DNA of 64,000 nucleotides from an uncultured Acetobacteraceae bacterium. Its GTDB lineage: Bacteria; Pseudomonadota; Alphaproteobacteria; Acetobacterales; Acetobacteraceae. Of this stretch, positions 22,747 to 44,932 are shown piece after piece; positions within the stretch are counted from its first letter, which is position 1; each line of letters begins with the position of its first letter. The notes under the pieces are model-generated. The model saw nothing but the letters and a program-made list of their open reading frames with translations. It was not told where the DNA came from and did no database searches. The position numbers and the translations under genes are program-made. The stretch covers positions 22,777 through 86,776 of the forward strand of contig CAIXEA010000029.1 in the NCBI GenBank assembly GCA_903918315.1, in the 5' to 3' direction.

Positions 22747-23471
22747 CCGCCCCGCTGCTCTCGCTGTCCGGCGTTTCAACCTACTATGGCGCTATCCAGG
22801 CGCTGAAGAATGTGGATCTCCAGGTCCATGAGGGGGAGATCGTCACCCTCATCGGCGCCAACGGGGCGGGTAAATCCACCCTGATGATGACCGTCTGCGG
22901 CAACCCGCGGGCGCGGGCGGGTCAGATCATCTATGACGGACGCGACATCACGCATGAACCCACCCACCTTATTATGCGCCGGCAGATCGCGCAGGCGCCG
23001 GAAGGGCGGCGTATCTTCGGGCGCATGACGGTCTATGAGAACCTGCTGATGGGGGCCGAAACATCCGGCCAGACCAATGTCCCGGCGCTGCTGGATCAGG
23101 TCTGCGACCTGTTCCCCCGGCTGCGGGAGCGTCTGACCCAGCGCGGCGGCACGCTATCGGGGGGTGAACAGCAAATGCTTGCGATTGGCCGGGCGCTGAT
23201 GGCTCGGCCGCGCCTGTTACTGCTGGATGAGCCGTCCTTGGGACTGGCCCCCCTGGTCGTCCGCCAGATTTTCGGGGCCATTCGGACCTTGAACAAAGAG
23301 ACCGGGCTGACGGTGCTGCTGGTGGAGCAAAACGCCTATCAGGCGCTGCGGCTGGCCCATCGCGGCTATGTGCTGGTCAACGGCGCGATCACGATGGCGG
23401 GGACCGGGGTCGAGCTATTGGCGCGCCCTGAGATACGGGCCGCCTACCTCGAGGGCGGTCATTATACGTGA
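22743..23471 (+). CDS. livF: ABC ATP-binding protein LivF
   Basis: GANGAGKST, LSGGEQQM and LDEPSLGLAP motifs. Confidence 0.95.
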   Translation: MTAPLLSLSGVSTYYGAIQALKNVDLQVHEGEIVTLIGANGAGKSTLMMTVCGNPRARAGQIIYDGRDITHEPTHLIMRRQIAQAPEGRRIFGRMTVYENLLMGAETSGQTNVPALLDQVCDLFPRLRERLTQRGGTLSGGEQQMLAIGRALMARPRLLLLDEPSLGLAPLVVRQIFGAIRTLNKETGLTVLLVEQNAYQALRLAHRGYVLVNGAITMAGTGVELLARPEIRAAYLEGGHYT

Positions 23472-23520
23472 TCGCGGGATTCAGACCTTCGGTGAGTCCA
23501 CCTCCGGTCATCCCGCTCTA
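23469..23520 (+). repeat. REP/MITE-like palindromic element, copy 1
   Basis: TGATCGCGGGATTC...TCCACCTCC...ATCCCGCTCTA; begins on the livF TGA stop. Confidence 0.85.
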
Positions 23521-23522
23521 AA

Positions 23523-23553
23523 TCATGATCGGGTCATCGTGACCCAATCATGA
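23523..23553. terminator. 14-bp near-perfect hairpin adjacent to element copy 1
   Basis: TCATGATCGGGTCA-TCG-TGACCCAATCATGA, one mismatch, between convergent livF and GST genes. Confidence 0.5.
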
Positions 23554-23580
23554 CCTATTCTTAATTAGCAACCAAAAATA

Positions 23581-24291
23581 TCAGACTGCGGCAAAGGGTC
23601 CGCGGCCGAACATCTTGTCGAGCGCGGCTGGCGCCGCCTTGTCGAATTGCGTGGTACGGGTGCGGACATCGTCCACCTTGGCCAGCGCCGCCTTGACCGC
23701 CGGGCGGGCGTCGATCTGCTTCACCCAGCGGCTCACATTGGGGAATTTCGCAGCCATCTCGGCCCCCATCAGCATGGGGATGTTACGCAGCCAGGGATAA
23801 GTGGCGATGTCGGCAACACCGTAGTCGCCGGCCAGGTATTCCCGGGTGGCGAGGCGTTGATCAATCACCTCGGTGACACGGACCGCCTGAGTGATGTAGC
23901 GGCTGCGGGAATAGTCGTTCCCAGACGGGGCGAAGCGGATGTAATGCACCATCTGCCCGAACATAGGCCCGACCGTTGACATCTGGGTCATCAGCCACTG
24001 GATCGCCTCATATTTGGCGCCCAATGCCCGCGGCAGCAACTGACCGGTCTTCTCGGCGAGATAGAGCAGAATCGCCCCCGACTCGAAGCAGACATAATCC
24101 TGACCGTCGGGCCCTTCGGAATCGACGATCAACGGGACCTTGGCGTTCGGGTTGAGCGCCTTGAAGTCATCGCTGAACTGTTCGCCCGTGAACACATCGA
24201 GCGGGGCAACAGTATAAGCAAGGCCAAGTTCTTCGAGCGCGATATAGACCTTCACGACGTTCGGACTGCCCATGCCGTAGAGAGTGATCAT
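23581..24291 (-). CDS. Glutathione S-transferase (YfcG/YghU-like)
   Basis: SPNVVK, NPNAKVP, FESGAILLYLAEK and ADIATYPW motifs. Confidence 0.93.
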   Translation of the reverse strand: MITLYGMGSPNVVKVYIALEELGLAYTVAPLDVFTGEQFSDDFKALNPNAKVPLIVDSEGPDGQDYVCFESGAILLYLAEKTGQLLPRALGAKYEAIQWLMTQMSTVGPMFGQMVHYIRFAPSGNDYSRSRYITQAVRVTEVIDQRLATREYLAGDYGVADIATYPWLRNIPMLMGAEMAAKFPNVSRWVKQIDARPAVKAALAKVDDVRTRTTQFDKAAPAALDKMFGRGPFAAV

Positions 24292-24318
24292 TGTTTGTTT
24301 CCTTGAAGGGATTGGCGC

Positions 24319-25212
24319 TTAACGCGTCTTCGGCATGTCGTAACCAGCGTTCTTCTCGACGAACCGCACCATCGTCGAAATATCGGCATTGGCGGAGTCG
24401 GCCATGATCGCGTGCCGGTACATCAGTCGCGCGGTCTGGCAGAGCCACATCGGGACGCCGAGTTCCTCCCCTTGCTCCAGCGCCAGATCGACGTCTTTCA
24501 TCAGAATATGCAGCGCCGCCCCGAAATTGAAATCGCGGGTGAAGATCGAACGCGGAAACACCTTCTCCAACGCGGCATTGTTGCCGGTCCCAACGCTGAT
24601 CGCGGCGTAAAGGGCTTCCGGATCGACGCCACCCTTGGTGCCCATGACGAAGGCTTCGGATGACGCCACGAGGTTGATCGCGAACAGGATATTATTAGTC
24701 AGTTTCATGACCTGCGCCGCGCCCACCTTGTCGCCGGCGATGGTCAGCGTCGGCCCCCAGAGGGACAGCAACGGACGCACCGCCGCCACCGCGGCCGGAT
24801 CACCCGAAACCATCACCGACAATGTCCCCGCCCAGGCACCCGATGGCCCGCCGGAGATCGGGGCATCGACGATCGCCACGCCCTTGGCGTTCATGGCAAC
24901 CTCAACCTCACGCAGGAATTTGGCGCCGACGGTGCAGGTATTGACCAGGATTTTCATCCTGGTGCCTTGCAACAGGCCGTTGTCACCGAACACCACGGCG
25001 CGGAACGCGTTCAATGTCGGCAATGAGACGAACACGATCTCACAGCTGTCCGCGAGCGCCTTCGGGGTCGTGGCCTGGCGCGCCTGCCGATCCAGCAAGG
25101 GCTGCATGGCGGCCGGGTTCGTGTCGAGGATCGTCAGATTATGCCCGCCATCGAGCAATTTGCTGGCCATCGGCTGCCCCATACTGCCGACGCCAAGATA
25201 TCCTGCTTCCAT
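24319..25212 (-). CDS. NAD(P)-dependent beta-hydroxyacid dehydrogenase (3-hydroxyisobutyrate DH family)
   Basis: GYLGVGSMGQPMA, DAPISGG and KLTNN motifs. Confidence 0.92.
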   Translation of the reverse strand: MEAGYLGVGSMGQPMASKLLDGGHNLTILDTNPAAMQPLLDRQARQATTPKALADSCEIVFVSLPTLNAFRAVVFGDNGLLQGTRMKILVNTCTVGAKFLREVEVAMNAKGVAIVDAPISGGPSGAWAGTLSVMVSGDPAAVAAVRPLLSLWGPTLTIAGDKVGAAQVMKLTNNILFAINLVASSEAFVMGTKGGVDPEALYAAISVGTGNNAALEKVFPRSIFTRDFNFGAALHILMKDVDLALEQGEELGVPMWLCQTARLMYRHAIMADSANADISTMVRFVEKNAGYDMPKTR

Positions 25213-25395
25213 ATCCGTCCTCCTCCGACGCTGCGTGTGGGTCTGAGATGCCACGACATCACCCTTGCATGCAAAACCCAGCATGCGGACGGTACCGGCG
25301 GCAAGCGGTTCGGTTCCGGCCTTGTTGTCCGGCGCCGCGTGGCCTACCGAAGACCTCTGTTGGCGCCACACCGTCCCGATTGGACTCGAATCCCC

Positions 25396-26412
25396 ATGCG
25401 AAGCGTGTTTTTGACGTTGGTCCTGATGCTGGCCGCGTTCCCCGGCCATACGTCTGAGCCGACCAGGATCACGATTGTGCAAGGCAGTCTCGGATTCAAT
25501 TTCGTGCCGCTCGCGGTGGCCCGCGCCGAAGGGTATTTTGAGCAGGAAGGCCTGCAGGTTGAGGTCGTACTGACCGGCGCCGGCCCGAAAGCGATGACCG
25601 CGTTGCTCGGCGGTGGTGGGGCATTCAGCGCCTCGGTGCTGTTGGATGGGATCATGGCGCATCGCAAGGGTCTGGACGATGTGCGCGCCATCGCGACATT
25701 GTCGCACTTCTATAATGCCATGGTCATCCGCAAGGAGGTCGCGTCAGATCTGGGTATCTCTCTTGATCTGCCGTTGAAAGAGCGTGTGACCCGCATGAAG
25801 GGCATGCGGATCGGGGTGACGACGCCCGGAGCGAGTTCCGACCTCGCGATCCGCTATCTCGCGCTCAGCAATGGCCTGTCCCCGGACCGTGATCTCCAGA
25901 TCGTACCGCTGGGCGGCGTGGCCCCCATGATCGCTGGCATGCAGGCCCGCCAGGTCGATGGTTGCGCTTGTATTCCGGGCGTGGACGTCGTGCTCAAGCA
26001 CCAGGGCCTCGCGATAGACCTGATGCGGCCCGGGGAACTGGCCGATCTGGACGGGATCACGAACGGGACGTTGTATACGCTTGCATCTTATGCCGCCGCC
26101 CATCCAGACGTGGTTCAGGCCGTCGCGCGCGGCGTGACGAGGGCGACGATGCTGATCGCCCGCGACCCAATCCGGGCGAAAAACGACACCCGCCCGACCA
26201 TGAAAGAGATGGACGACGCGACCTTCGAGCAGGCATGGAAAACCTATCTGCCGTATCTGCCGAAAGACCCGGACATCACCGAAAGCGATTTCAACCGGGA
26301 GATGGCGTTCGAGAAGCTGGCTTTGCCTCCGAACGTGTTCAAGCCGGTCAACTATGATGCGATCGTGGATGCCAGCTATGTCCGCGCGGCGGCGAAAGCG
26401 CTCGTGCCGTAG
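25396..26412 (+). CDS. NitT/TauT (SsuA/THI5-like) ABC substrate-binding protein, orphan
   Basis: Signal peptide; GYFEQEGLQVE and KGMRIGVTTPGASSD motifs. Confidence 0.88.
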   Translation: MRSVFLTLVLMLAAFPGHTSEPTRITIVQGSLGFNFVPLAVARAEGYFEQEGLQVEVVLTGAGPKAMTALLGGGGAFSASVLLDGIMAHRKGLDDVRAIATLSHFYNAMVIRKEVASDLGISLDLPLKERVTRMKGMRIGVTTPGASSDLAIRYLALSNGLSPDRDLQIVPLGGVAPMIAGMQARQVDGCACIPGVDVVLKHQGLAIDLMRPGELADLDGITNGTLYTLASYAAAHPDVVQAVARGVTRATMLIARDPIRAKNDTRPTMKEMDDATFEQAWKTYLPYLPKDPDITESDFNREMAFEKLALPPNVFKPVNYDAIVDASYVRAAAKALVP

Positions 26413-26466
26413 CGCGTTCCAGCGGCATGGCACACGATGATCAGCCGTCGGCAGGTCGTTCGAGCA

Positions 26467-26573
26467 TAATCGCGGGATTCAGACCTTCGGTGATTCCACC
26501 TCCAGTCATCCCGCTGTTGCCTGATCGCGGGATTCAGACCTTCGGTGATTCCACCTCCGGTCATCCCGCTCTA
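26467..26573 (+). repeat. REP/MITE-like element, tandem copies 2 and 3 (55-bp period)
   Basis: 26467-26515 and 26522-26573 nearly identical to copy 1; the terminal CTA is the TAG stop of the convergent gene. Confidence 0.88.
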
Positions 26574-27356
26574 ATCGGCCGCGGCGGCAATCTGGCCCAA
26601 CCGGGATTCCGCGGCATAGCGGCGGACGGCGTCGCCAAACTCCTCAAACATGCGGCGGGAAATGCTGTCCGTCGGCCAGTCATATTCAGGATGCCACTGA
26701 ACGCCTACGGCATAGCGCGTGGCCGGCGTGACGACGCGCACGGCTTCGATCGTGCCATCCGGCGCGACACCCTCGATCGCCAGGCCAGGAGCGAGACGAT
26801 CGATGCCTTGGTTATGAAGGGAATTGACCGCGATCTCGGACGCGCCGGCGAGCCTGTGCAACCAGCCGCCGGGGGTCACTCGGATACTATGGGCCTTGCC
26901 CTGCCGTACCTTGGCCGAGGGCTGCATCGGGGTGGAGTGATCCAGGCGTCCCGGCACATCCTGCAGCCTTTGGTGCAGCGATCCGCCCATGGCGACATTC
27001 AATTCCTGGAACCCGCGGCAAATCGCCAGAACCGGCACCCCACGTGCGACCGCGGCGCGGATGAGCGGGAGGGTCAACCCATCGCGCGCGGGGTCTTCCC
27101 AGGTCCCTTCCGCATGCGGCGGACCGTCATATTGGGTCGGATGCACATTGGATCGACTGCCGGTCAGGATGATGCCATCGAGGCGGTCGAGCAGTGTCTC
27201 GACATCAGCCGTTGGTCCATTGGCTGGCAGCAGCACGGGCACACCGCCGACGACAAGATCGGTCGCCCGCACATAGGTGTCCGACGCGGCGTGGTTCGGC
27301 ATTCCGAAGACGCCGAACTGCTTGGTGCAGCAACTGATACCGACAAGAGGTTTCAT
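26571..27356 (-). CDS. Gamma-glutamyl-gamma-aminobutyrate hydrolase family (peptidase C26, PuuD-like)
   Basis: LTGSRSNVHP, LAICRGFQELNV, VNSLHNQG and GVQWHPE motifs. Confidence 0.92.
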   Translation of the reverse strand: MKPLVGISCCTKQFGVFGMPNHAASDTYVRATDLVVGGVPVLLPANGPTADVETLLDRLDGIILTGSRSNVHPTQYDGPPHAEGTWEDPARDGLTLPLIRAAVARGVPVLAICRGFQELNVAMGGSLHQRLQDVPGRLDHSTPMQPSAKVRQGKAHSIRVTPGGWLHRLAGASEIAVNSLHNQGIDRLAPGLAIEGVAPDGTIEAVRVVTPATRYAVGVQWHPEYDWPTDSISRRMFEEFGDAVRRYAAESRLGQIAAAAD

Positions 27357-27456
27357 AAACCTGAGATTCTCATGCTTTACGCATGATCCCCGATTCGAAT
27401 GGCAAAATGAAGACAAATCGTGTGATTGCGCGCCGCGTAACCGTCATAGCTGGGGC

Positions 27457-28095
27457 CTATCCCCCGCCCGTCGAATCACCCGGCATCGCCGAGGGTTCGA
27501 AGAGTTTGGCATCGAAGCTCCCGCCTAGCTGGGCGTTGAACAGCGTCACCTTGGTTTCCTTGCGCTGGGCATCCAGCACCGTCCACTGCCGCAGAGTCAG
27601 CGGTACGTCGGCGAAGACCAGGGTCAGCGTGCCCTCCCCCGGTTCGGCGGTGCGAACCAGGCTCACGTCGATTTCCCCTGGCAGGCGCTTGATGTCTGTC
27701 ACCGTGACGTCGCCCGACAGCGAGACCTTGGTGGCGAGCAGCATCCCAAGCGGCGTACGGCTGAGCGGCACGCGGCTGGTCTGGCGGATGGACGAATCCT
27801 GAAACACCAGCTCCCCATGCGAAGCGACCAACAGGAAGGGCGCGGGTGGACTATACTGAAACCGCATCCGGCCGGGGCGGGCGAGCCAGGCGTCGCCCTC
27901 ACTGACCCCGCCATCGGGCGCGACCTGCAGGAAGCGCGCCTTCAGCGCCGTCAGGCCATTCAAATACGTTTCAATTCGCGTCAGATCGGCGCGATCCTGC
28001 GCGGTTGGCTGAAACGCGGGTTCAGCCCGAACTTCCCCTGGCGCCATGAGGGGCGCCATCAGGCACAGGGTCGTCAGAAGGGTGCGTCGGAACAT
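27457..28095 (-). CDS. lolA: Outer-membrane lipoprotein carrier LolA
   Basis: ARFLQ...RPGRMRFQY, PLSRTPLGMLL and LRQWTVLDAQ motifs. Confidence 0.9.
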   Translation of the reverse strand: MFRRTLLTTLCLMAPLMAPGEVRAEPAFQPTAQDRADLTRIETYLNGLTALKARFLQVAPDGGVSEGDAWLARPGRMRFQYSPPAPFLLVASHGELVFQDSSIRQTSRVPLSRTPLGMLLATKVSLSGDVTVTDIKRLPGEIDVSLVRTAEPGEGTLTLVFADVPLTLRQWTVLDAQRKETKVTLFNAQLGGSFDAKLFEPSAMPGDSTGGG

Positions 28096-28134
28096 AGCGG
28101 GGATGTGGTCTTTCCAGATGGGATTTGCAAACCC

Positions 28135-29352
28135 CTATTCCGCAGCCACCGGCAGGGCTTCCGCCCAGAGCTCGGGGGCCAGCTCCTCCTTCCGATCAGG
28201 GAAGAACAGCGCGCAGGCCAGCGTCACCACCGAGAAGGCCGCCAAAACCAGCGTAACGGCGGTCAGATTGCCAGTGCGCTCATGCAGGAAGCTAACCACC
28301 GGTGCCGAGGCGGCCGCGCCGAGGAAACCCACAAAAAAGCGAACCGAGTAGATGCGGGCCCGCAGCTCCGGTGAGATGTAGCGAGCCGCCATCGTCTCGT
28401 TCACCGTCACCTGCCCGAAGATGGACGCCGCGACCGCACCCGCCAGCGGCAGCACCAGCCAGCCTTGCGCCACCGACAGCGCCGCCATCGCTGGTGCCAG
28501 GACCATGCTGATCGGCAGGAACACCCGCTTGAGCGTGTGCTTGTCGATCAGCCGACCGACCGTGAATTGGGTCAAGGCCCCGCAGAGGGTGGCGAGAAAG
28601 GCCAGCGCGCCGACAACCGGCAACAGATTGGGCGTGTCGGCCAGCCGCTCCTGCATCAGCTTGGGCAGCAGCAGCGTGAAGGCATTGAACACCAGACCGG
28701 AACTCGCGGCGATCAGCATCAGCACCAGCACCGCCCGCCGCACCAGGGCGCGGGGAATGGTCGGAAACGGCCTCGCACCGCGATGCGCGGGCCCACCCAC
28801 GATCGGGGTCCGCACCCACAGCAGGCCCACCACCGTGCACAGAAGCCCCGGCACCAAAAAGGCGGCGCGCCAGCTGAACTGCGCCGCCATGAACGCCGTC
28901 ACCACCGGTGCCAACGCCACCCCGATATTGCCGAACACGCCGTTGACCCCGATCGAACGCCCGGGCTTATCGCCCGCTGCCTCCACCAGCATGGTGGTGC
29001 CGATCGGATGGTAGATCGCGGTGAAGACCCCCACCCCGCCGAGCGTCGCGGCCAGGATCCAGGGACCGGGCGCAAAGGCGGAGGCGATCAGACACAGACC
29101 CGTCCCCAGGAAAAAGGCCGTCATCAGCGGTTTGCGGCCGACGCGCTGCGCCAGCCAGCCCTGCGGCAGTGACAACAGGCCGTAGAGCACGAACATGCCC
29201 GTCGCCAACGCCAGGATGGGACCGTAAGCCTCCCCGAACAGCCCGCCCGGTGCGGCCATGGCCAGCACCGCCGTCGGCAGGATCAGCAAGCTGTAATGGG
29301 TAAATGTATGGGCGGTATTGATGAACACGATCTGACGAGCGGCGGGAGTCAT
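28135..29352 (-). CDS. MFS transporter
   Basis: ~405 aa, multiple TM segments, GWLAQRVGRK loop motif, AIYHPIG. Confidence 0.92.
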   Translation of the reverse strand: MTPAARQIVFINTAHTFTHYSLLILPTAVLAMAAPGGLFGEAYGPILALATGMFVLYGLLSLPQGWLAQRVGRKPLMTAFFLGTGLCLIASAFAPGPWILAATLGGVGVFTAIYHPIGTTMLVEAAGDKPGRSIGVNGVFGNIGVALAPVVTAFMAAQFSWRAAFLVPGLLCTVVGLLWVRTPIVGGPAHRGARPFPTIPRALVRRAVLVLMLIAASSGLVFNAFTLLLPKLMQERLADTPNLLPVVGALAFLATLCGALTQFTVGRLIDKHTLKRVFLPISMVLAPAMAALSVAQGWLVLPLAGAVAASIFGQVTVNETMAARYISPELRARIYSVRFFVGFLGAAASAPVVSFLHERTGNLTAVTLVLAAFSVVTLACALFFPDRKEELAPELWAEALPVAAE

Positions 29353-29437
29353 TGAGTGGGTCCCTTGAGACGGCCGAAACGCGGCAGCTTCGTCCGTGCG
29401 AGGACGAACTGCAAGTCCGGCGCATTTTTCGCCCCGC

Positions 29438-29470
29438 GTTAACCGTTTCTTCACTCTTTCGCGCGAACAT
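29438..29470 (+). promoter_or_regulatory. CtrA-type promoter motif (TTAA-N7-TTCA)
   Basis: GTTAACCGTTTCTTCACTCTTTCGCGCGAACAT, ending 30 nt before the DUF2336 start. Confidence 0.6.
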
Positions 29471-29500
29471 GGGGCCGAAACCGGATCCAGGTGAGCCCGC

Positions 29501-30604
29501 ATGTCTTCCACGCTTTCCCATGCTGACGTGGCGCGACTGATCTCCGAACCGTCCTCCGCCTCCCGGGTGGTGCTGGCCGGTAAGCTGGGGCCAGAGCTCG
29601 ACAGTCCGCGTCTGACCACCCGCGAACTGGATCTGGCGCAGGACATTGTCCGCATCCTCGCCAAAGATGTCGAGGAAACGGTCCGCACCACGCTCGCGGC
29701 CAGCGTTCGTGCGTCCCGCAATCTGCCGCATGACGTCGCATTGCGGATCGCGTCGGATATCGAAGCGGTGGCGCTACCGGTCCTTGCGGCATCGCCCGTG
29801 TTGACGGACGCGGACCTGATGGCGTTCGTACGGGATGGTTCGGCGGCAAGGCAGCTCGCCATAGCCCAACGTCCGGTGGTGGCGGAGCCGGTGTCCGACG
29901 CTCTGGTCACCCATGCGGGGGAGGATGCCGTCGCCGCGCTTCTGGCCAATCCCGGCGCGATCATCGGTGAACCCGCGCTGGATCGCGCGGTCGATCGCTT
30001 TTCGGCCAGCGAGGCGGTCAAGGGTGCGATGGTGCGACGCGAAACGCTCCCCGCCGCGGTGGCGGAGCGGCTGGTGACGCTGGTTTCCATGCAACTGCGT
30101 GATCATCTGGTACGGCATCATGCTTTACCCGCGGCGGCGGCGGCCGACATCGTGATGCGCGGGCGGGAGCAGGCGGTGATCCGCCTCAGTGCCGGCGCTG
30201 GGGACGGCGACCTGGCGGCCATGATCAGCCAGATTTACCGCGGCGGACGCCTGAGCCCATCCTTGGTGCTGCGATCGCTCTGCACCGGCGATATCGGGTT
30301 TTTCGAGGCAGCGATGGCCGAACTGAGCGGTGTCCGGGTGGAGAACGTCCAAATCCTGCTTCGGGATGCGGGGCCCCATGGCCTGGTTTCGTTGTACCGG
30401 CGAACGGGGCTACCAGATCGGATGTTCGCGGCGGTGCGGGCAACGATGGATGTGGTCCAGGAAACCGGCTTCAATGGGGAGGCCAGGGAACTGGAACGCT
30501 ACCGCGCGAAAGTCATCGCCCGGGTGCTGACGCAGGTGCGGACCTTCGACGCCGCCGATGCGGACTATCTGGTCGATCGACTGGGCGACGCCCTGGCGGC
30601 GTAG
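29501..30604 (+). CDS. DUF2336 domain protein (SpbR-like family)
   Basis: LPHDVALRIASDIEAVALPVLAASPVLTDADL and AIAQRPVVAEPVSDALV motifs. Confidence 0.9.
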   Translation: MSSTLSHADVARLISEPSSASRVVLAGKLGPELDSPRLTTRELDLAQDIVRILAKDVEETVRTTLAASVRASRNLPHDVALRIASDIEAVALPVLAASPVLTDADLMAFVRDGSAARQLAIAQRPVVAEPVSDALVTHAGEDAVAALLANPGAIIGEPALDRAVDRFSASEAVKGAMVRRETLPAAVAERLVTLVSMQLRDHLVRHHALPAAAAADIVMRGREQAVIRLSAGAGDGDLAAMISQIYRGGRLSPSLVLRSLCTGDIGFFEAAMAELSGVRVENVQILLRDAGPHGLVSLYRRTGLPDRMFAAVRATMDVVQETGFNGEARELERYRAKVIARVLTQVRTFDAADADYLVDRLGDALAA

Positions 30605-30653
30605 AGCGTGATCGGCGGAGGTGGAATCACCGGAGCCGTGAATCACGCGATCA
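30602..30653 (-). repeat. REP/MITE-like element, copy 4 (diverged, compensatory stem changes)
   Basis: TAGAGCGTGAT...GGAGGTGGAATCACCG...AATCACGCGATCA; starts on the DUF2336 TAG stop. Confidence 0.8.
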
Positions 30654-30663
30654 AACAATCACG

Positions 30664-31674
30664 CTAGGCCGGCACGCCTTTGCTGGTTGAATACTCGAAA
30701 TGCAGCGCCTGATCCGGATGCACCACCGCGAACGCGGCATGGGCCGCCATTGCCGCCTCACTAAAGCCCTGCAGGATCAGTTTCAGCTTGCCGGGGTAGT
30801 TGGCCACGTCGCCGATGGCGAACACGCCCGGGGTACTGGTCTGGCAGGTCGCGGGATCGATGGTGACGTGATGCAAATCGCGCTCCAGCCCCCAGGACGC
30901 GATCGGGCCGAGGTCCATCGACAGGCCAAAAAACGGCAGCAACACATCGGCCGGGAGCAGTTTCGTGTCGCCCTTCAACGTCGCGACCTCCACGCCGGTC
31001 AGCGTGCCGCCAGTGCCGTGCAAAGCATGTAATTGATAGGGAATGACCATCTCGACCTCCCCTCGCGCCGCCGCGGCATCGAGCTGGGCCGCGGTTTCCG
31101 GGGCCGCGCGGAATTTGGGACGCCGATGCACGACCGAAACCTGGGCGATGTCCTTCAAGGCCAGTGCCCAATCCACCGCGGAATCGCCGCCGCCGGCAAT
31201 GACCACGCGCTTGCCACGCAAAAGCTCCCGCTGACGGACATAATATTGGACCGCGCCCGTGGCCTCATAGGCTGGCAGGCCTTCCAGCGGCGGGCGGTTG
31301 GGGCCGAAGGCGCCAGCGCCGGCGGCGACGATCACCGCCCTGGCCTTGATCGTATCCCCCTGATCGGTGGTGAGCACGAAGGCGCCGGCCTGACCGCTGA
31401 GGGTTTCGACCCGCCGCCCCAGCAGACGCGGTGTGTCGAAGGGCGCGATCTGCTGTTCCAGCTTCGCGACCAACTCCCCCGCGTCGATCGCCGGATGGGC
31501 CGGGATGTCATAAATGGGCTTTTCCGGATACAGCGCGGCGCACTGCCCACCGACATCGGTCAGCGCGTCGATCAGGACGGCGGACAGTTTGAGCATGCCA
31601 AGCTCGAACACCGAGAATAACCCGACCGGGCCCGCGCCGACGATCGCGACGTCGGTTTCGATTTCCTGTGCCAT
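30664..31674 (-). CDS. Thioredoxin-reductase-like ferredoxin--NADP(+) reductase
   Basis: GAGPVG, GGQCAALYPEKPIYDIP, GGGDSAVDW and YPGKLKLILQGF motifs; no CxxC. Confidence 0.92.
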   Translation of the reverse strand: MAQEIETDVAIVGAGPVGLFSVFELGMLKLSAVLIDALTDVGGQCAALYPEKPIYDIPAHPAIDAGELVAKLEQQIAPFDTPRLLGRRVETLSGQAGAFVLTTDQGDTIKARAVIVAAGAGAFGPNRPPLEGLPAYEATGAVQYYVRQRELLRGKRVVIAGGGDSAVDWALALKDIAQVSVVHRRPKFRAAPETAAQLDAAAARGEVEMVIPYQLHALHGTGGTLTGVEVATLKGDTKLLPADVLLPFFGLSMDLGPIASWGLERDLHHVTIDPATCQTSTPGVFAIGDVANYPGKLKLILQGFSEAAMAAHAAFAVVHPDQALHFEYSTSKGVPA

Positions 31675-31887
31675 CATTGCCCCCTGGAACACCAGCCGGC
31701 TGCGCGTTACCCCTCACCGCGCTCCAGAGCAATACCGGTTTAGGTTGAATCGCGCAGCGATCCACAAACCGGTAAAATGGCTCGATAAAATATATCTAAA
31801 GTATGTGCGTTGTCAGACGGACACGCTTCAGCGGGGCGGACAGATGGCAGCAAGTAGGTGTCAGCGACGGTTTTGAAAGGGGTGCGG

Positions 31888-32076
31888 ATGCCGGCGAAAG
31901 GACGAACAAAGGCGGGAACGAAAGCCGTGGCGAACGAGCTAAGGCGATTGGCCGCAGCGGTCGCCGTGACCCAGCCTGCCACGCCGCCCGAATCACCGGC
32001 GCGGGAGCCAGCGGCGACGGCGGCGGAGAGGGCGGCGGAGAGGGCATTTTTCGACTCCCTCGGGGGTGATCCCTGA
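31888..32076 (+). CDS. Hypothetical 62-aa protein
   Basis: GAAAGGGG RBS before the ATG at 31888; AT-rich upstream region; C-terminal AERAFFDSLGGDP. Confidence 0.5.
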   Translation: MPAKGRTKAGTKAVANELRRLAAAVAVTQPATPPESPAREPAATAAERAAERAFFDSLGGDP

Positions 32077-32095
32077 TCGCGAAATCGTCCGGCCA

Positions 32096-33688: not shown

Positions 33689-33788
33689 GTGGGGCGTCCT
33701 TCCCTGGATTATCCGTTGGCGGCTTGTGTTGACAGGACTGTGGCACGGGGGGCGGGCCGGCTCAATCGGGAAGAAGCTGCCAAATAAA

Positions 33789-33836
33789 GCGCCCACGGGA
33801 GCGCCCACTGGAGCACCCACTGGAGCACCCACTGGG
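33789..33836 (+). repeat. 4 x 12-bp tandem repeat (GCRCCCACKGGR)
   Basis: GCGCCCACGGGA GCGCCCACTGGA GCACCCACTGGA GCACCCACTGGG. Confidence 0.9.
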
Positions 33837-33925
33837 GTTGGTTCTGTCCCGCCCTCAGAAATACGGACAGGCGCACCCCGACCCAGCGATAGACCCGACT
33901 CCACCCCTACGGCACACTACCAGGC

Positions 33926-35385: not shown

Positions 35386-36137
35386 GCAACCCCATGACCA
35401 TCCACCCTCGGACTGCCATGGTCCTCGCCGCCGGCCTGGCAACGCGCATGCGGCCGCTGACGGATCACACCGCCAAGCCGCTGCTGATGCTGGGCGGGCA
35501 GACGCTGCTGGATCATGCGCTGGATCGCCTGGCCGAGGCTGGAGTCGAAACCGTGGCCGTCAACGCCTTCTGGCAGGCGGACAAGGTGGCCGCGCACCTG
35601 GCATCCCGCACCAAACCGCCGACGACGGTGCTCCACCGGGAAACGACGTTGCTCGACACGGGCGGGGGGGTGAAGAACGCGCTCGATATCCTCGGCCCGG
35701 ATCCGTTCTACGTGATCAACGGCGACGCGGTCTGGCTGGATGGGCCAACCCCGGCACTGACCCGGCTGGCGCGGGCATGGAGCGATGATGTGGACGCGGT
35801 GCTGCTGCTGCACCGGACATGCCAGATCATGGGGGACGTCGGGCGCGGGGACTTCGCCCTCGATCCGCTGGGCATACCGCGGCGGCGGCGGGAGCGGGAG
35901 ATCGTGCCTTATCTGTTTGCCGGGGTGCAGCTGATGCACCCGCGCCTGATGGACGGCATGCCGGACGATGCGTTCAGCACCAACCGGGCCTGGAACCGGG
36001 CTTTGGACGCCGGCCGCCTGCGCGCGGTGGTGCATGATGGGCACTGGTTCCATCTTTCCACGCCTTCAGACCTGAAAGACGCAGAAGAGGTGATGCTCGC
36101 CCCGGTGACGGGTGACGCGAAATGGCCGTGGCGGTAA
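35382..36137 (+). CDS. murU: MurNAc-1-P uridylyltransferase (nucleotidyltransferase)
   Basis: AMVLAAGLATRMRPLT, KPLL, LDTGGG and INGDA motifs; GTGA overlap with amgK. Confidence 0.88.
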   Translation: MSNPMTIHPRTAMVLAAGLATRMRPLTDHTAKPLLMLGGQTLLDHALDRLAEAGVETVAVNAFWQADKVAAHLASRTKPPTTVLHRETTLLDTGGGVKNALDILGPDPFYVINGDAVWLDGPTPALTRLARAWSDDVDAVLLLHRTCQIMGDVGRGDFALDPLGIPRRRREREIVPYLFAGVQLMHPRLMDGMPDDAFSTNRAWNRALDAGRLRAVVHDGHWFHLSTPSDLKDAEEVMLAPVTGDAKWPWR

Positions 36138-36153
36138 CCAAGGGGCGTTGAAC

Positions 36154-39129: not shown

Positions 39130-39220
39130 GCGCTGTCGGAGCAAATTGCCCAAGCACCGCGCGAGTGGGGTGTTTAGCGCAGGGGCAAAACAGCGCCTCC
39201 TTCACAGATCGGGCCCGCCC

Positions 39221-42200
39221 ATGACCGAGGAATCCCCCCGCGACCGTGCCACTCGGGCGCAACGGGAGGCCTCTGACCCCGCGGTGTCCGCCTTCGTCGC
39301 TGCCTCCGCCGGCTCGGGCAAGACCAAGCTTCTGACCGATCGGCTGCTGCGCCTCATGCTGACCGACGGCGTAAGGCCGGAGCGGATCCAATGTCTGACT
39401 TTCACCAAAGCCGCCGCGGCCGAGATGTCGGTGCGGCTGCAACGCCTGCTCGGCGGTTGGGTGACGATGGACGATCCAACGCTGGACGCGGCGCTGATCG
39501 CGTTGGACATGATCCCGACGCCGTCGCTGCGCCGGACCGCGCGGGCCTTGTTCGCGCGGGTCCTCGATCTGCCCGGCGGCATGCGTATTGGCACCATTCA
39601 TGCCTTCTGCCAGTCCCTGCTGCGCCGGTTCCCCCTGGAAGCCGCGCTATCGCCGCATTTCCAACTGGTGGACGACCGCGATGCCGAGGACGCGCTGACC
39701 GAAGCCCGCGAAGCGATGCTGACCAAAGCCGAAGCCAACCACCTCAACATTGCGCTGGAGTTGCTCGCTGGCCTGTCGAGCGCGGAGCAATTCGGCGCCA
39801 ACGTCAAAACATTGCTGGCCGATCGGGATCGGGTGACCCAGGCGCTGGCGCATCCCGACCTCGCGGGGGCGCAGCGTCGGGCGCTGGGGGTCACGGCCGA
39901 CAGCGCCGATGCGCTGATCGCTTCGGCGGTGAACTGGCAGGAAGAACCCGGCCTTCGCAATGCCGCCCTGATCGTGCGCAGCCTGGGTTCCCCGGGGATC
40001 AAGAAAGCCGCTGAAGCGATGCTGGACTGGCTCAGTTGCGATGCCGAACACCGGTCTGCAAATTGGGATGTGTGGCGCAGCTTGTTCATCACCACGCAAG
40101 ATAAGGTTTTTTCCGCAAAATCCTTTGTCAGCCAGGGAGTTACCAAAGCACATCCGGATCTGGTGGAGATTTTCTTCGCGGAGGGCGAACGCATCCTCGC
40201 TGTGCAGGACTCGCTGCGGGCTTTGAACCTGGCCGAAGCCTCGGCCGCTTTGTTCAGCCTCGCCGCGCCTGTGCTGACAGCCTATGCGGACCACAAAGAG
40301 CGGACCGGGCTGTTGGACTACGACGATCTGATTGGGCGGACGTCGAAGTTATTGCACGATCCGGGGGCCGCCTGGGTGCTGTACAAGCTCGACGGCGGCA
40401 TCGATCATCTGCTGCTCGACGAGGTACAGGATATCGCGCGGCAGCAGTGGCAAATCGCCCACGCCCTTACCGACGAATTCTTTGCTGGTTTCGGCGCGCG
40501 CGACCAGCGGCGCACCGTTTTCGCCGTCGGCGATCCCAAGCAGTCGATCTTTGGATTTCAGGGGGCGGATGTCTCAACATTCGAATCCTCCCGCCGCCGC
40601 CTCGCGACAACGGTGCGCGGCGCCGGGGAGACCTTTGTCGATGTTCCCCTCGATGTGTCCTTCCGTTCAGCCGAACCCGTGCTGGCGCTGGTGGACGCGG
40701 TGTTCGGCGATCCCACCGCCGCCCTGGGCGTGGTTACCCCGGGGGACACTCTGGCCCATTTCGCCAATCGCGCCGGGCATGCGGGGGCGGTGGAGCTCTG
40801 GCCGCTTGCCCCCCTACCCGACGCGGCGAAGCCTGATCCAACCGCCGTGCCGGACAGCAACCAGACCCAGACCGACGCCCCGAAAGCCCTGGCTGACCGG
40901 ATCGCGGACTGGATCAAGGCGCAGACCGACGGCTCGGTCCGGCTTGAAAGCCGAGATCGGCCGTTGCGGCCGGGCGATGTGATGGTGCTGGTGCGCCGGC
41001 GCAACAGCTTCGCCGTTGCGTTGGTGCGGGCGTTGAAAACGCGCGGCGTGCCGGTGGCGGGCATGGACCGGATGGTGCTGACCGATCAGCCGGCGGTGCA
41101 GGACCTGATGGCTCTCGCGGATGCGCTGCTGCTGCCGGAAGACGACCTGACATTTGCCGCCCTGCTGACCAGCCCGCTGGGTGGTCTGGGCGACGACGAC
41201 CTCATGGCACTCTGTATCGACCGGGCCGGCACGGTGGCGGAGGCGTTGCGCCGCCGCGCCACAGAGCGACCCCAGTGGCAGAAGGCCTGGACATTCTTCG
41301 CCACTTTGCAGGCCCGGGTCGATTATGCCACGCCCTATGCCATCCTGGCGGAGGGGCTGGGCGCGTTGGGCGGGCGGGCGCGGTTGCTGGCCCGGCTTGG
41401 CCCGGAAGCGGCGGAGCCGATCGCGGAATTGCTCAACGCGGCGTTGACCTATAGCGCGATCCACCCACCATCCCTGCAAGGGTTCCTGCACTGGATCCGC
41501 CGCTCAGGCGCCGAAGTGAAGCGGGAGGCGGAGGCCGCGGGCAATCTGGTGCGGATCATGACCGTACACGGCGCCAAAGGCCTACAGGCGCCGGTGGTGA
41601 TCGTACCCGACACCACCGCTATGCCGACGGATCGAAATACCATTGTTTGGGCGGACCAGGCCGTGCCCCTCTGGACCCCCAACAAGGCGCTGCGCTGCAA
41701 GGCGGTAGAGCATATTCGGGCCGACGCATTCCAGCGGGAAATCGCGGAATACAACCGCTTGCTTTATGTCGCTCTAACCCGCGCCGAAGACCGGCTGATC
41801 ATCTGCGGCTGGCAGACAAAGCGGGGTATCAGCGATGCCAGTTGGTACAGGGCTGCTGAGCGCGGATTCGCTCGGATAGCAGCGTCCGAAGAAGCATTTG
41901 GCAGTTGGGGCGTGCTGCGGCGGTTCGCCGCCCCGCAAATCGCCGTCCCCAGTGTGGGACCGTCCGGCCACACGGCCCCAAATCCTGAACCGTTGCCCGC
42001 CTGGATTGGCCGCTCACCGGACTGGACCGCCGCGCCCGCGCCGTTGGAACCCGCTCGGCCGCAGCCTTTGGCCCCAAGCCGGCCAGATGGTGGGGAACTG
42101 GGAACGGTGCCGGAAGTGGCTTCGCCTTTGGCCGAACGGATGGAACAAGGCGACCGGTTCCGCCGGGGCCAACTGATCCACGGGTTGTTGCAGCATCTGC

Positions 42201-42667
42201 CGTCCCTGCCACCGGGCGACCGCGCCGACGCTGCACGGCGCTTTCTGGCCCGCCCCGGCCAGGGCTTGGCCCCGGGTTCGGCCATGATCATGGTCAGGGA
42301 AATCCTGGCGATCCTGGAACACCCCGATCTGGCGCCGCTGTTCGGGCCGGGAAGCCGGGCGGAGGTGCCGCTGACCGGGGTTGTCGGCGGCGCGGTGGTT
42401 GGCGGACTGGTGGACCGACTCGCGGTTCTAAGGGATCGAGTGCTGGTGGCGGATTTCAAGACCAACCGCACGCCCCCGGCCGCTGTCGCTGACACGCCAA
42501 TCCTGTATCGACGGCAGATGGCGCTGTACCGGGCGGTGTTACGGGCGGTTTTCCCTGATCGCCGGGTTATTTGCGCCCTGGTCTGGACCCGGGACGCGCG
42601 GGTTGTCATCCTGCCGGACGAGATCCTCGATCAGCACGAACCCAGACCCGCGTCCAACGCGGCTTGA
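39221..42667 (+). CDS. addA: Double-strand break repair helicase AddA
   Basis: ASAGSGKT, LTFTKAAAAEM, LLDEVQD, MTVHGAKGL and ADFKTNR motifs. Confidence 0.97.
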   Translation: MTEESPRDRATRAQREASDPAVSAFVAASAGSGKTKLLTDRLLRLMLTDGVRPERIQCLTFTKAAAAEMSVRLQRLLGGWVTMDDPTLDAALIALDMIPTPSLRRTARALFARVLDLPGGMRIGTIHAFCQSLLRRFPLEAALSPHFQLVDDRDAEDALTEAREAMLTKAEANHLNIALELLAGLSSAEQFGANVKTLLADRDRVTQALAHPDLAGAQRRALGVTADSADALIASAVNWQEEPGLRNAALIVRSLGSPGIKKAAEAMLDWLSCDAEHRSANWDVWRSLFITTQDKVFSAKSFVSQGVTKAHPDLVEIFFAEGERILAVQDSLRALNLAEASAALFSLAAPVLTAYADHKERTGLLDYDDLIGRTSKLLHDPGAAWVLYKLDGGIDHLLLDEVQDIARQQWQIAHALTDEFFAGFGARDQRRTVFAVGDPKQSIFGFQGADVSTFESSRRRLATTVRGAGETFVDVPLDVSFRSAEPVLALVDAVFGDPTAALGVVTPGDTLAHFANRAGHAGAVELWPLAPLPDAAKPDPTAVPDSNQTQTDAPKALADRIADWIKAQTDGSVRLESRDRPLRPGDVMVLVRRRNSFAVALVRALKTRGVPVAGMDRMVLTDQPAVQDLMALADALLLPEDDLTFAALLTSPLGGLGDDDLMALCIDRAGTVAEALRRRATERPQWQKAWTFFATLQARVDYATPYAILAEGLGALGGRARLLARLGPEAAEPIAELLNAALTYSAIHPPSLQGFLHWIRRSGAEVKREAEAAGNLVRIMTVHGAKGLQAPVVIVPDTTAMPTDRNTIVWADQAVPLWTPNKALRCKAVEHIRADAFQREIAEYNRLLYVALTRAEDRLIICGWQTKRGISDASWYRAAERGFARIAASEEAFGSWGVLRRFAAPQIAVPSVGPSGHTAPNPEPLPAWIGRSPDWTAAPAPLEPARPQPLAPSRPDGGELGTVPEVASPLAERMEQGDRFRRGQLIHGLLQHLPSLPPGDRADAARRFLARPGQGLAPGSAMIMVREILAILEHPDLAPLFGPGSRAEVPLTGVVGGAVVGGLVDRLAVLRDRVLVADFKTNRTPPAAVADTPILYRRQMALYRAVLRAVFPDRRVICALVWTRDARVVILPDEILDQHEPRPASNAA

Positions 42668-42690
42668 GGCCGGGCGTCGAGCCCTTATTT
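42663..42690 (+). promoter_or_regulatory. Possible RpoH-type promoter for trxA
   Basis: CTTGAG-N15-CTTATTT resembles the alphaproteobacterial sigma32 consensus CTTGAA-N16-CCTATAT. Confidence 0.35.
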
Positions 42691-42718
42691 CACGGTTACG
42701 CAACTCAAAGAGGTCCCC

Positions 42719-43051
42719 ATGAGCGAAAATACCAAACCCGTCACCGACGACAGCTTCGCGACAGATGTCGTGGAAGCCAGCAAATCTGGCCCGGTCCTGG
42801 TCGATTTCTGGGCAGAATGGTGTGGCCCCTGCAAGATGATTGGCCCGGCGTTGGAAGAAATCGCCGGTGAGTTGGCCGGCAAATTGACGGTCGCGAAGGT
42901 CGATATCGACAATAATCCGATGTCGCCGACCAAGTTCGCGGTGCGCGGTATCCCGACGCTGATCCTTTTCAAGGACGGCAAGCCAGCCGCAACCCAGGTC
43001 GGCGCCCTGCCGAAGGGCCGTCTGAAAGAATGGATCGCCAACAACATCTAA
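42719..43051 (+). CDS. trxA: Thioredoxin
   Basis: [11 protein letters not shown] motif. Confidence 0.98.
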
Positions 43052-43060
43052 CCCGCGGTG

Positions 43061-43088
43061 GGAAGGTGCCCTGATGGGCACCTTCAAC
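43061..43088 (+). terminator. Hairpin after trxA
   Basis: GAAGGTGCCC-TGAT-GGGCACCTTC, no clear U-tract. Confidence 0.5.
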
Positions 43089-43271
43089 CAGCGGTACCTG
43101 TTTAAACGGCAGAGCGCTCCTCGCCTCACGCTGTCGTGTGTGCCTTTATAACTGATATGACGCTATTATCTTGCTTTCATACCCCAACACGGTCTTGATA
43201 CCTTTCGTAACGCGCCGTTTATTTTTTGTGATTCTGATCATGGGGCGGATAATGGGCTGGAGCAGGCGCTG

Positions 43272-44870
43272 ATGGCAGCCGAATATCGCACGGGTGCGGA
43301 AACGGTCGCACGCAACGTTCACCTCATAGTCCTGATCCTGGTTCTGACCCTTACGACCCTTCACGTTCCCCTGAATCGCCGTGCTGACGATGCCTTCCGT
43401 GAAGGTGCGTACCTGATGTACGGCGTGTCCGGCCAAGGCAACGCCGCGATGGCTGCCCCGGTCGCGTTACGTGGCGGAATCGAGCGTGTTCCCGCCATTC
43501 TTGCCCGAACTTTCTGTGAACCGGACTATCAGATCGTTTGCGTTCGCAAGATCGGTATCGCGCTGACAGTGGGCTCGGTCGCGCTCTATTTGCTGATCCT
43601 GACCGTCATCGCGGGTTTTGGTACGCTGATCAGTGTTTATGCGGGCATACCCGCGATTGCCGTGCTGATCACCTTAAATGGCAGCGCGAGCAGTCCGGCC
43701 GATCTGTTTATCGGTGCGCCCGGCGCGGTCGATCTTGGTGTTCTGGCAATCTTGTATATTGCCCTGCGCGTCGCCCGCGATTCACAGGACGCGACCGAGC
43801 GATACTCACGCCGCTGGCTGTTCGGCTTGGGGGTTGTCGCCGGCTTCGGGCAGTTCTGGGCCTATGACCGCGGCATTGTCGGGCTCGTCCTGCTGGTCAC
43901 AACGATGTTTGGCACCAGCAGGCTGCTGCCGGGTACGAGGCCCAAGCGGACCATTGTTTCAGGTCTGCTCCTGGGGCTGGCACTCTCGTTCTTGATGGGC
44001 ATCAACCGGGGCTTCGTCGCGAATATAACGGCTCAGGTTTATTGGCTGCAACACAGCGATATCTGGTGGCTTCACTGGACGACGCCCATGATGCTCGTCA
44101 ATGGGCCCGCTGTTCTGATGGTTCTGCTGCTGCTTGGGCTGGGCTTTCAAATCGTTCAGCGCAATATCGCCATCGGCGAAACCGGCGAGGCGTTCAGCCT
44201 GCGCCTGCTCATGATCGCGACGGCGTTTTATATGGTGCAGATGCTCCTGCGCCCCGACGCCCAACATATCGGGTCCGTGCTGGCCGTCGCCGCGCTGCTG
44301 GCGGCCATGGTTTTGAGCCAGATTGGGTTGCCCTGGATGTGGGGGGTCACCCCCAGGAGAATCCTGTTCATCGCCGTCTGCATGGTGTTCGTCACATCCA
44401 TCTATGGTCCCCGAACAGTGGCCTCTCTTCCGGATCTATGGTCGCGGGACTTCGATGCCGCGCCGGATAGCTGGTACTCCCGAACGCCGCGTGACGCCGA
44501 ACTCGTTCCGGCTGGCCTGAAGGAAGCAGCGGATATGATCAAAGCACGCGGCGCGGATTGTACTTATAGTTTTAGCAATGAAGGGCTGCTGTATTTGCTC
44601 GCCAGCACGCCGCCCTGCTCGCGCTTCGCCTACCCCGTTTATATCACACAATCACAAGAGCCCCTGGTGATCGCCGAGCTTGAAGCCGCGAAACCGCCGA
44701 TCATCCTGGCACAATCCGGGGCATGGTCGAACGCCGTGGATGGGCTGAGCCTGAGCGACCGTACGCCACAACTGGCGGAATGGCTCAAAGCCAACTACCC
44801 GGGCCGAAAAATGCTCCCGGGGGGATACGAGATCCGCATGCGGGAAGTGACGGGCAAGCCGGCTCGATAG
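43272..44870 (+). CDS. Polytopic membrane protein, possible GT-C-fold glycosyltransferase; start uncertain
   Basis: Many hydrophobic segments, DAFREG loop, soluble C-terminal domain; AT-rich upstream region; sits between trxA and folC. Confidence 0.75.
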   Translation: MAAEYRTGAETVARNVHLIVLILVLTLTTLHVPLNRRADDAFREGAYLMYGVSGQGNAAMAAPVALRGGIERVPAILARTFCEPDYQIVCVRKIGIALTVGSVALYLLILTVIAGFGTLISVYAGIPAIAVLITLNGSASSPADLFIGAPGAVDLGVLAILYIALRVARDSQDATERYSRRWLFGLGVVAGFGQFWAYDRGIVGLVLLVTTMFGTSRLLPGTRPKRTIVSGLLLGLALSFLMGINRGFVANITAQVYWLQHSDIWWLHWTTPMMLVNGPAVLMVLLLLGLGFQIVQRNIAIGETGEAFSLRLLMIATAFYMVQMLLRPDAQHIGSVLAVAALLAAMVLSQIGLPWMWGVTPRRILFIAVCMVFVTSIYGPRTVASLPDLWSRDFDAAPDSWYSRTPRDAELVPAGLKEAADMIKARGADCTYSFSNEGLLYLLASTPPCSRFAYPVYITQSQEPLVIAELEAAKPPIILAQSGAWSNAVDGLSLSDRTPQLAEWLKANYPGRKMLPGGYEIRMREVTGKPAR

Positions 44871-44918
44871 AGCGGGATGACTCGAGGTGGAGGACCTAAG
44901 GTTCGAATCCCGCGATCA
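44868..44918 (-). repeat. REP/MITE-like element, copy 5
   Basis: TAGAGCGGGATGA...GAGGTGGA...GAATCCCGCGATCA; starts on the TAG stop of 43272..44870. Confidence 0.83.
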
Positions 44919-44932
44919 CGCTCAGGCGGACT

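Follow-up and report, generated by a model that had tools for sequence, protein, structure and literature searches.

Stop-codon-fused palindromes of an Acetobacteraceae genome as probable modules of an IS630-type MITE family

The window analysed here, a 64,000-nucleotide stretch (C29:22777-86776) of the genome of an uncultured Acetobacteraceae bacterium (assembly GCA_903918315.1), carries five copies of a short palindrome that lie between convergent genes and merge with their stop codons. These palindromes are very probably one module, hairpin 2, of a modular family of miniature inverted-repeat transposable elements (MITEs) of the IS630/Tc1-mariner type, moved in trans by transposases of insertion sequences (ISs) of the same genome. 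The active unit here would be a 104-bp composite, and solo and tandem hairpin-2 units of the kind seen in the window would be older or partial derivatives.

The earlier note had proposed a dispersed family, and a genome-wide profile search (nhmmer) built from the five window copies recovered ~150 copies in the 5.04-Mb assembly (241 contigs, 64.8% G+C, with no contigs below ~1.5 kb). A catalogue made with four profiles comprises 214 modules, ~156 of hairpin 2 and 58 of a second type, hairpin 1, over 135 loci. The 51-52-bp unit delimited in that note is real; it is not the whole element, however, and represents one module of a modular element with two subfamilies. The fairly diverged subfamily A, with GCGGGAT stems, is often arranged in head-to-tail arrays. 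In subfamily B, which includes 49 almost identical copies, the stems are GCGTGAT/CGGC, and extension of the flanks showed that this subfamily is usually the 3' half of the 104-bp composite. By architecture, the loci divide into H1B-H2B composites (44), solo H2A (40), solo H2B (23), H2A arrays of two to four units (14) and other combinations (14).

At least 44 loci hold a near-identical 104-bp composite of the form TA^GAGC-hairpin 1-GCTC TA-linker-hairpin 2-GCTC^TA (carets mark element boundaries). In full, it reads yTA^GAGCATGTCCGGTGC-TTTCAG-GCGCACCGGACATGCTC^TA-A-CCGATTGTTTGATC-(hairpin 2)-TC^TA-r, with CCGATTGTTTGATC as the linker. Its hairpin 1, GAGCATGTCCGGTGC-loop-GCACCGGACATGCTC, is a near-perfect palindrome, and its hairpin 2 is GCGTGAT-TCA-CGGC-TCC-GGTG-ATTC-CACC-TCC-GCCG-ATCACGC, followed by TC-TA. 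The hairpin-1 variants are themselves compensated (GAGCATG...CATGCTC, GAGCCTG...CAGGCTC, GAGTCTG...CAGACTC and GTGCATG...CATGCAC). Neither the 104-bp composite nor the 52-bp solo module contains an open reading frame, and their minimum free energy (MFE) folds, computed with ViennaRNA, are hairpins; the composite reached -57.0 kcal/mol as RNA (z -7.9) and -33.9 as DNA (z -8.2), with the stems reproduced. Further small TA^GAGC... families are also dispersed in this genome, namely TAGAGCCTGTCCGTCTAAAGACGGACAGGCTCTA (~10 copies), TAGAGCAATACCGGTTTAGGTTGAATCGCGCAGCGATCAACAAACCGGT... (~10 copies) and GTAGAGCAGCGCYAGCAAAAATCGTTCCCGCGATGTGTGAATCCAG... (~25 copies, often beside GTCATGGCCCGGCTTGTCCGGGC repeats).

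The elements have a real preference for YTAR, with a 2-bp duplication of TA. A strict composite pattern matched 18 of the ~44 composites. The flank statistics are those of these 18, all 104 bp long, and the 35 composites listed agree on visual inspection. A pyrimidine (C or T) preceded the left TA in 18/18 and a purine (A or G) followed the right TA in 17/18; across the genome, YTAR accounts for only 6.6% of NTAN. The outer Y and R combined independently (CA 6, CG 5, TG 3, TA 3), while the inner G and C were constant, which rules out a 4-bp YTAR duplication of the IS5/IS1380 type. The possibility, raised in the earlier note, that the elements target TAG was not borne out: the target is the TA of YTAR, TAA and TAG stops are hit alike, and the TA is duplicated. 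As the outermost bases of the element are G...C, each TA copy reads TAG on the strand that enters the element.

Empty sites were looked for in relatives and found. The joined flanks of 16 composites were compared with 40 same-genus genomes, and 17 regions were fetched and aligned. At C62:28187, two relatives (G004 and G014) keep the convergent genes, ending ...TTT TAG and ...TTC TAA, and have no element. At C93:1626, three sister genomes have TAA as the orthologous stop and another three have TGA; here the site reads TA-G(element)...CTC-TA-A, and deleting the element with one TA restores TAA. The same arrangement, TA-G(element)...CTC-TA-A, is found at C149:6405, where TAA is the stop of the ortholog in each of the two sister genomes compared. 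At C62:28187, C93:1626 and C149:6405 alike, filled and empty sites are distinguished by the element and a single TA. In G004, moreover, the two genes that flank window copy 4 lie 19 nt apart without the element. Copy 4 alone among the window copies was comparable in this way, the genes flanking copies 1, 2/3 and 5 being non-syntenic in the ten relatives searched. That the element moved recently is shown by the empty sites together with the 49 near-identical copies scattered over the genome. In G006, an Acetobacteraceae metagenome-assembled genome (MAG; JANXMB01), the region orthologous to C93:1626 (L101, C67:23580-24190) carries an independent TA-to-TA insertion of that genome's own hairpin-2 variant, with GCGCGAT stems, on the stop of the opposite gene; this stop is TAA in four genomes (the present one and three relatives), TGA in one and TAG in G006. 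An additional gene of ~800 bp separates the counterparts of the genes flanking copy 4 in G006 (L127, G006:C121:5800-7260); in the present genome and in G004, those two genes are convergent neighbours.

A candidate source of the transposase was found at the contig ends of this assembly, where multi-copy ISs have collapsed. Four contig ends start with yTA^GAGCCTGTCCGCTCAAAG... (TA^GAGCCTGTCCGC...) and then encode a transposase N-terminus, MPRPYSHDLRERALA, and five start with TA^GAGCATGTCCGACTTATATCC... (TA^GAGCATGTCCGA...) and encode, on the other strand, a transposase C-terminus, ...LLRKADERSIAEVWHRIGKLIDHFTPEECANYIRHSGY (...EECANYIRHSGY). The first 11 nt of the two types of IS end are identical to the hairpin-1 arm variants GAGCCTGTCCG and GAGCATGTCCG. 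A DNA search with the first IS end identified related complete ISs in sister genomes. The complete IS of G048 (~1.05 kb, flanked by TA, with inverted repeats GAGCATGATCGTTTTAAGTTGAC (GAGCATGATCGT...)) encodes two overlapping frames with a DDE_3 match (E = 5e-32, 111 bits), and its products match HTH_Tnp_IS630-type domains weakly; the N- and C-terminal peptides from the contig ends are 67% and 58% identical to its two open reading frames. At 10/12 positions, GAGCGTGATCGG, the outer end of hairpin 2, agrees with the inverted repeat of the G048 IS, GAGCATGATCGT. A second IS630-like pair of ends is present in the genome. The identities at the IS ends indicate that hairpin 1 is two fused IS630-type ends and that the composite is bounded by such ends and flanked by TA. 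From these sequence matches, we infer that IS630-type transposases move the elements.

A 27-copy IS with a transposase ending ...KSVHTA-stop was considered as an alternative driver and is not favoured, its end, GGCCGTGTGGACG, matching the MITE ends at only ~5/13 positions. In this IS, seen at 27 contig ends (e.g., C61:9881-9999, C25:1-135 and C62:56979-57095), the transposase frame runs to ...GKLKRFKRVAMRCEKTKRNYEAFVSLACVFVLIKSVHTA without a stop of its own; the IS terminates ...CACACGGCC, and the flank always supplies the stop as TA+A or TA+G, i.e., the insertions are at TA-R sites. This high-copy IS is a major cause of the fragmentation of the assembly. Another multi-copy IS, at 50 + 34 contig ends (e.g., both ends of C102 and the right end of C128), reads (C/T)TA(A/G)^CCCATCTTATTCATC..., and its YTAR flanks suggest an IS5-like element with a 4-bp YTAR duplication. 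The same rare target is thus common to several mobile elements of this genome that are unrelated to one another.

We then considered the genomic context of the copies, using our own codon-usage log-odds gene caller, trained on this genome (4567 genes, 88% coding; its calls are approximate), which replaced an earlier caller based on G+C at third codon positions only that was dropped as over-strict (77% coding). The bias toward gene 3' ends described for the window was seen genome-wide, the classifiable loci being 61 convergent, 45 tandem, 3 divergent and 4 genic, against 647 convergent, 3011 tandem and 668 divergent intergenic regions in the genome. If a gene 3' end were sufficient (two per convergent region and one per tandem region), a convergent share of 30% would be expected; 58% was observed. 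A stop codon lies in or at the element ends at 83/135 loci and is TAG in 72 of those. Correspondingly, 91/784 TAG stops are followed by AGC, compared with 2.5% of TAA stops and 1.7% of TGA stops. The orientation of composites relative to the abutting gene was unbiased (stop at the 5' end at 17(+5) loci and at the 3' end at 15(+5)), as expected of a symmetric DNA insertion.

These observations are consistent with a simple route to the fusion of element and stop codon. Insertion into a TAA or TAG stop of either flanking gene would keep an in-frame stop at the same position and would, thus, be near-neutral. In this genome of 65% G+C, YTAR would be the rarest NTAN class and a sizeable share of YTAR sites would be stop codons, while insertions in promoters or within operons would presumably be purged. 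Since insertion at stops would be near-neutral, YTAR rare and insertions elsewhere purged, copies would accumulate at stops, above all between convergent genes, and the stop-codon fusion would follow from the YTAR/TA target, the G...C termini and selection against other sites.

Several observations weigh against the IS630-type MITE interpretation as a whole or limit it. The loci that touch a stop amount to 61%, whereas stops make up ~21% of non-coding YTAR sites, and this ~threefold excess needs selection or an extra targeting rule. A six-frame DDE_3 search of the genome was negative, with no full-length IS630 copy in the assembly, which we attribute, from the contig-end analysis, to IS bodies missing from the assembly; the proposed driver is accordingly drawn from contig-end fragments of ~140 nt and from a sister genome. 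Solo hairpin-2 copies have no crisp left end (a TA is found 3-16 nt upstream of TGATC), and the inverted-repeat match between their two ends is poor; that they are mobile by themselves is therefore less certain than for the composite.

Within the window, all five palindrome copies described in the earlier note are present, and our gene calls place all four loci between convergent genes (Table 1). The window consensus, in a common orientation, is TGATC-GCGGGAT-TCA-GACC-TTC-GGTG-ATTC-CACC-TCC-GGTC-ATCCCGC-TCTA; allowing <=3 mismatches, this 51-nt consensus has two matches in the window and none in 100 shuffles. The gene calls confirmed four stop codons in the element ends and added a fifth, that of the second gene at copy 4. 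Copy 1 reads TGATC-GCGGGAT-TCA-GACC-TTC-GGTG-AGTC-CACC-TCC-GGTC-ATCCCGC-TCTA, its right end being CTC-TA followed by A. Copy 2 has the left end TAATC, and its junction with copy 3 is GCTGTTGCC. Copy 3, a sister of copy 1, has an MFE fold of -23.0 kcal/mol as RNA (z -4.9) and -12.1 as DNA (z -4.4), in which the three-stem hairpin is recovered. In copy 4, the compensatory change from GCGGGAT/ATCCCGC to GCGTGAT/ATCACGC was confirmed, and the second stem is also swapped as compensated pairs (GACC/GGTC to CGGC/GCCG). The start of this copy had been placed correctly and its end understated: it reaches 30666 rather than 30654 and occupies the entire intergenic space, from stop codon to stop codon. 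On the minus strand, it reads TA-GCGTGAT-TGTTTGATC-GCGTGAT-TCA-CGGC-TCC-GGTG-ATTC-CACC-TCC-GCCG-ATCACGC-TC-TA. Copy 5, first delimited as 44868-44918, is mutated in its apical part (GGTCCTCCACC), and its other end, GATCACGCTC-AG, is a degenerate, decayed GCTC-TA terminus. Immediately 3' of copy 1, and still between the convergent genes, is a separate small palindrome, ATCATGATCGGGTCA-TCG-TGACCCAATCATGA (23523-23553); as its core was found once in the genome, it does not belong to the repeat family, and it may be a native terminator.

Table 1. Hairpin-2 copies in the window and the stop codons that lie in their ends (window coordinates).
Copy	Position	Strand	Description	Stop codon in element end (gene, strand)
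1	23469-23520	+	Solo hairpin-2 module, subfamily A	TGA 23469-71, first bases of the copy (22743-23471, +)
2	26467-26521	+	Hairpin-2 module, subfamily A; opens a head-to-tail dimer (period 55 bp)	
3	26522-26573	+	Hairpin-2 module, subfamily A; identical to the consensus	TAG, as terminal CTA 26571-73 (26571-27356, -)
4	30602-30666	-	Hairpin-2 module, subfamily B, with left extension	TAG 30602-04 (29528-30604, +); CTA 30664-66 at the far end (30664-31692, convergent, -)
5	44868-44925 (end ~44925)	-	Diverged hairpin-2 module, subfamily A	TAG 44868-70 (43272-44870, +)

Covariation, which the earlier note had seen in copy 4, was also measured over 151 unique hairpin-2 sequences, taken from the present genome and from other Acetobacteraceae. 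Of the cells in the outer and middle stems, 95% were paired, compared with 78% in column shuffles (maximum 80%) and 25-39% with shifted partners. Full double compensatory changes occurred at five paired positions: 8-46 (GC 125, CG 14, AT 6), 9-45 (TA 83, GC 37, CG 23), 16-41 (GC 83, CG 62), 17-40 (AT 80, GC 50, CG 12) and 18-39 (CG 113, GC 34). G-T wobble pairs were not in excess over other mismatches. The covariation is therefore real, but it does not prove the structural selection that had been read into it: it may reflect either a need for the hairpin or the fit of both arms to the same transposase, as two ends binding one transposase would covary alike, and the data do not separate these. 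The Shine-Dalgarno (SD)/anti-SD core GGAGGTG/CACCTCC is present as a sequence motif, whereas a role in RNA is not supported, since the last C of the motif is variable among relatives (CACCTNCG) and copies are oriented without bias with respect to the flanking genes.

The distribution of hairpin 2 was assessed by a pattern scan of a species-representative genome collection with the apical part fixed and the stems free. The apical pattern was found at at least 98 loci in at least 30 assemblies, almost all of them Acetobacteraceae; the hosts among the matches listed are labelled Roseomonas, Rubritepida, Roseococcus and Acidisphaera, together with MAGs labelled Acetobacteraceae, Rhodospirillales or "Asaia bogorensis". 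The recurring architecture is CTAGAGC-(species-specific hairpin 1)-GCTCTAr-yyTTTGTTTnny-(hairpin 2)-CTCTAr. Within the genus, occurrence is patchy, with 114 pattern matches here, 71 in G006, 1-4 in three other genomes and none in the rest. The invariance of the apical part is partly a matter of ascertainment: among the fetched loci, 32 further copies, which the pattern had not picked out, have decayed in the ordinary way and have a compensated apical stem, and in three cases the basal stems are unchanged but bear another apical hairpin. In G006, some copies (L009:~1009, L015:~2969 and L032:~4333) keep the basal stems GTGATTCACGCC...GGCGATCAC and have the apical hairpin replaced by CGAGGTTGA-AGTC-AACCTCAG, pointing to module swapping inside the hairpin.

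The earlier note had left the choice between a REP and a MITE family open, and of the two only the MITE half survives. Elements of the repetitive extragenic palindromic (REP)/REPIN type are single-strand hairpins that are cut and pasted by a REP-associated tyrosine (HUH/Y1) transposase (RAYT). Like REPs, bacterial interspersed mosaic elements (BIMEs) and REPINs, the present elements are short imperfect palindromes with compensated stems that lie at gene 3' ends, both convergent and tandem, sometimes in tandem or in mosaic clusters, and the ends of GTAG-tagged REPs are known to supply TAG stops to flanking open reading frames (Di Nocera et al. 2013, PMC3733652); the same survey reported no CGTC repeats in Acetobacteraceae. 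Nevertheless, we consider a REP origin highly improbable. No Y1_Tnp (PF01797) match, and hence no RAYT gene, was found in this genome, in a search that was positive in six control genomes, nor in G006, the other element-rich genome. Conversely, Y1_Tnp was found in 6/41 same-genus genomes, and the four of these that were also screened for the element (G001, G013, G015 and G018) have no copies. Furthermore, the ends are paired (TA^GAGC...GCTC^TA) with no unpaired GTAG or CGTC tetranucleotide tag, they are identical over 11 nt to IS630-type IS termini, and the empty sites reveal a TA duplication.

That hairpin 2 is instead a structured module useful to the host and riding on MITEs, whether as an RNA 3'-end or stability element, a bidirectional terminator, an SD/anti-SD mimic or a protein-binding cruciform, is improbable in our judgment, even though the apical CTYCGGTGATTCCACCTNCG recurs in at least 30 Acetobacteraceae assemblies of several genera beside hairpin-1 modules that differ between species, and the module shows double compensatory changes at five paired positions, stands directly after stop codons and has GGAGGTG/CACCTCC in its core. 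The invariance across genera was partly built in by a scan that required the motif, and the copies not selected in this way decay, compensate the apical stem and even swap the apical hairpin. Orientation relative to the upstream gene is unbiased, the element is absent from most same-genus species and G-T wobble is not in excess. Rfam gave no match at the gathering score in the whole window and none at E <= 1 in 26380-30720. A terminator, in particular, is not favoured, with no U-tract or T-run after hairpin 2 and a T-rich linker that begins only 8-10 nt beyond hairpin 1. An extended version of this idea, to which we likewise give little credence, is that hairpin 2, with its apical CTYCGGTGATTCCACCTNCG and covarying basal stems, is an old structure-constrained cargo that has been kept for an RNA or single-stranded-DNA role at gene 3' ends, with hairpin-1 carrier ends swapped to suit the IS630 transposase of each species and with the G...C termini as an evolved "safe-site" device. 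Were this true, the cargo might, for example, protect or end transcripts in either orientation or bind a conserved host protein, and stop codons would be neutral landing pads by virtue of the G...C termini. A different and more plausible objection, though one we still regard as doubtful, is that only the composite is mobile today and that solo and tandem hairpin-2 units no longer transpose, being decaying relics of an earlier MITE wave that multiply or persist only by slippage, unequal recombination and gene conversion. Subfamily A copies differ from one another far more than do the 49 near-identical copies of subfamily B, head-to-tail arrays are common and have a fixed period of 55 or 62 bp, and the left boundaries of solo copies are ragged. 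On the other hand, the 40 solo A and 23 solo B loci are spread over many contigs, and the solo unit of G006 was inserted exactly TA-to-TA on a stop that is TAA in relatives, so that solo units inserted on their own in at least one lineage.

Probable movement by IS630-type transposases places the family beside known systems. MITEs derived from IS630/Tc1-mariner elements are known in bacteria, such as RUP in Streptococcus pneumoniae and Nezha in cyanobacteria. Like these, the present elements are small, non-coding and intergenic, have terminal inverted repeats that match those of IS630-type elements, duplicate TA, fold back into hairpins and occur in tens to hundreds of copies. They differ in the hairpin made of fused inverted repeats together with a second hairpin common to several genera, in the strict YTAR target, in G...C termini that rebuild TAG on both sides, in the 61% of loci that abut a stop, in the frequent tandem arrays of a single module and in their Acetobacteraceae hosts. 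The Correia elements (NEMIS) of Neisseria are ~100-150 bp long, with 26-bp terminal inverted repeats, an IHF site and promoter and RNase III functions. They, too, are TA-duplicating inverted repeats with no transposase gene of their own that often lie at gene ends, and they are transcribed as hairpins; to our knowledge, they have no identified driver, whereas here there is a candidate IS630-type driver with matching ends. IS630 of Shigella sonnei targets CTAG and duplicates TA. It shares with the present family a palindromic, TA-centred target (here YTAR), the 2-bp TA duplication and a two-frame DDE_3 transposase; by comparison, the elements described here are non-autonomous, their target is relaxed to YTAR and the full IS of the genome is unassembled. 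In the literature, we found no paper with the core sequence in this context and no description of MITEs or REPs of this kind in Acetobacteraceae or Roseomonas.

Taken together, this is a well-defined MITE family of the IS630 kind, previously undescribed for Acetobacteraceae, that follows a known mechanism rather than a new one, and its stop-rebuilding behaviour is predictable from IS630 biology. It illustrates, with numbers, the survival of a transposon that targets TA/YTAR in a genome that is compact and G+C-rich: the target sites are for the most part stop codons, and the end of the element rebuilds the stop. For annotation, it means that ~9% of the TAG stops of this genome (72/784) lie inside these elements and that many short intergenic hairpins that look like terminators are transposon copies. 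With 22/135 loci touching a contig end, the elements and their parent ISs also explain part of the fragmentation of the assembly.

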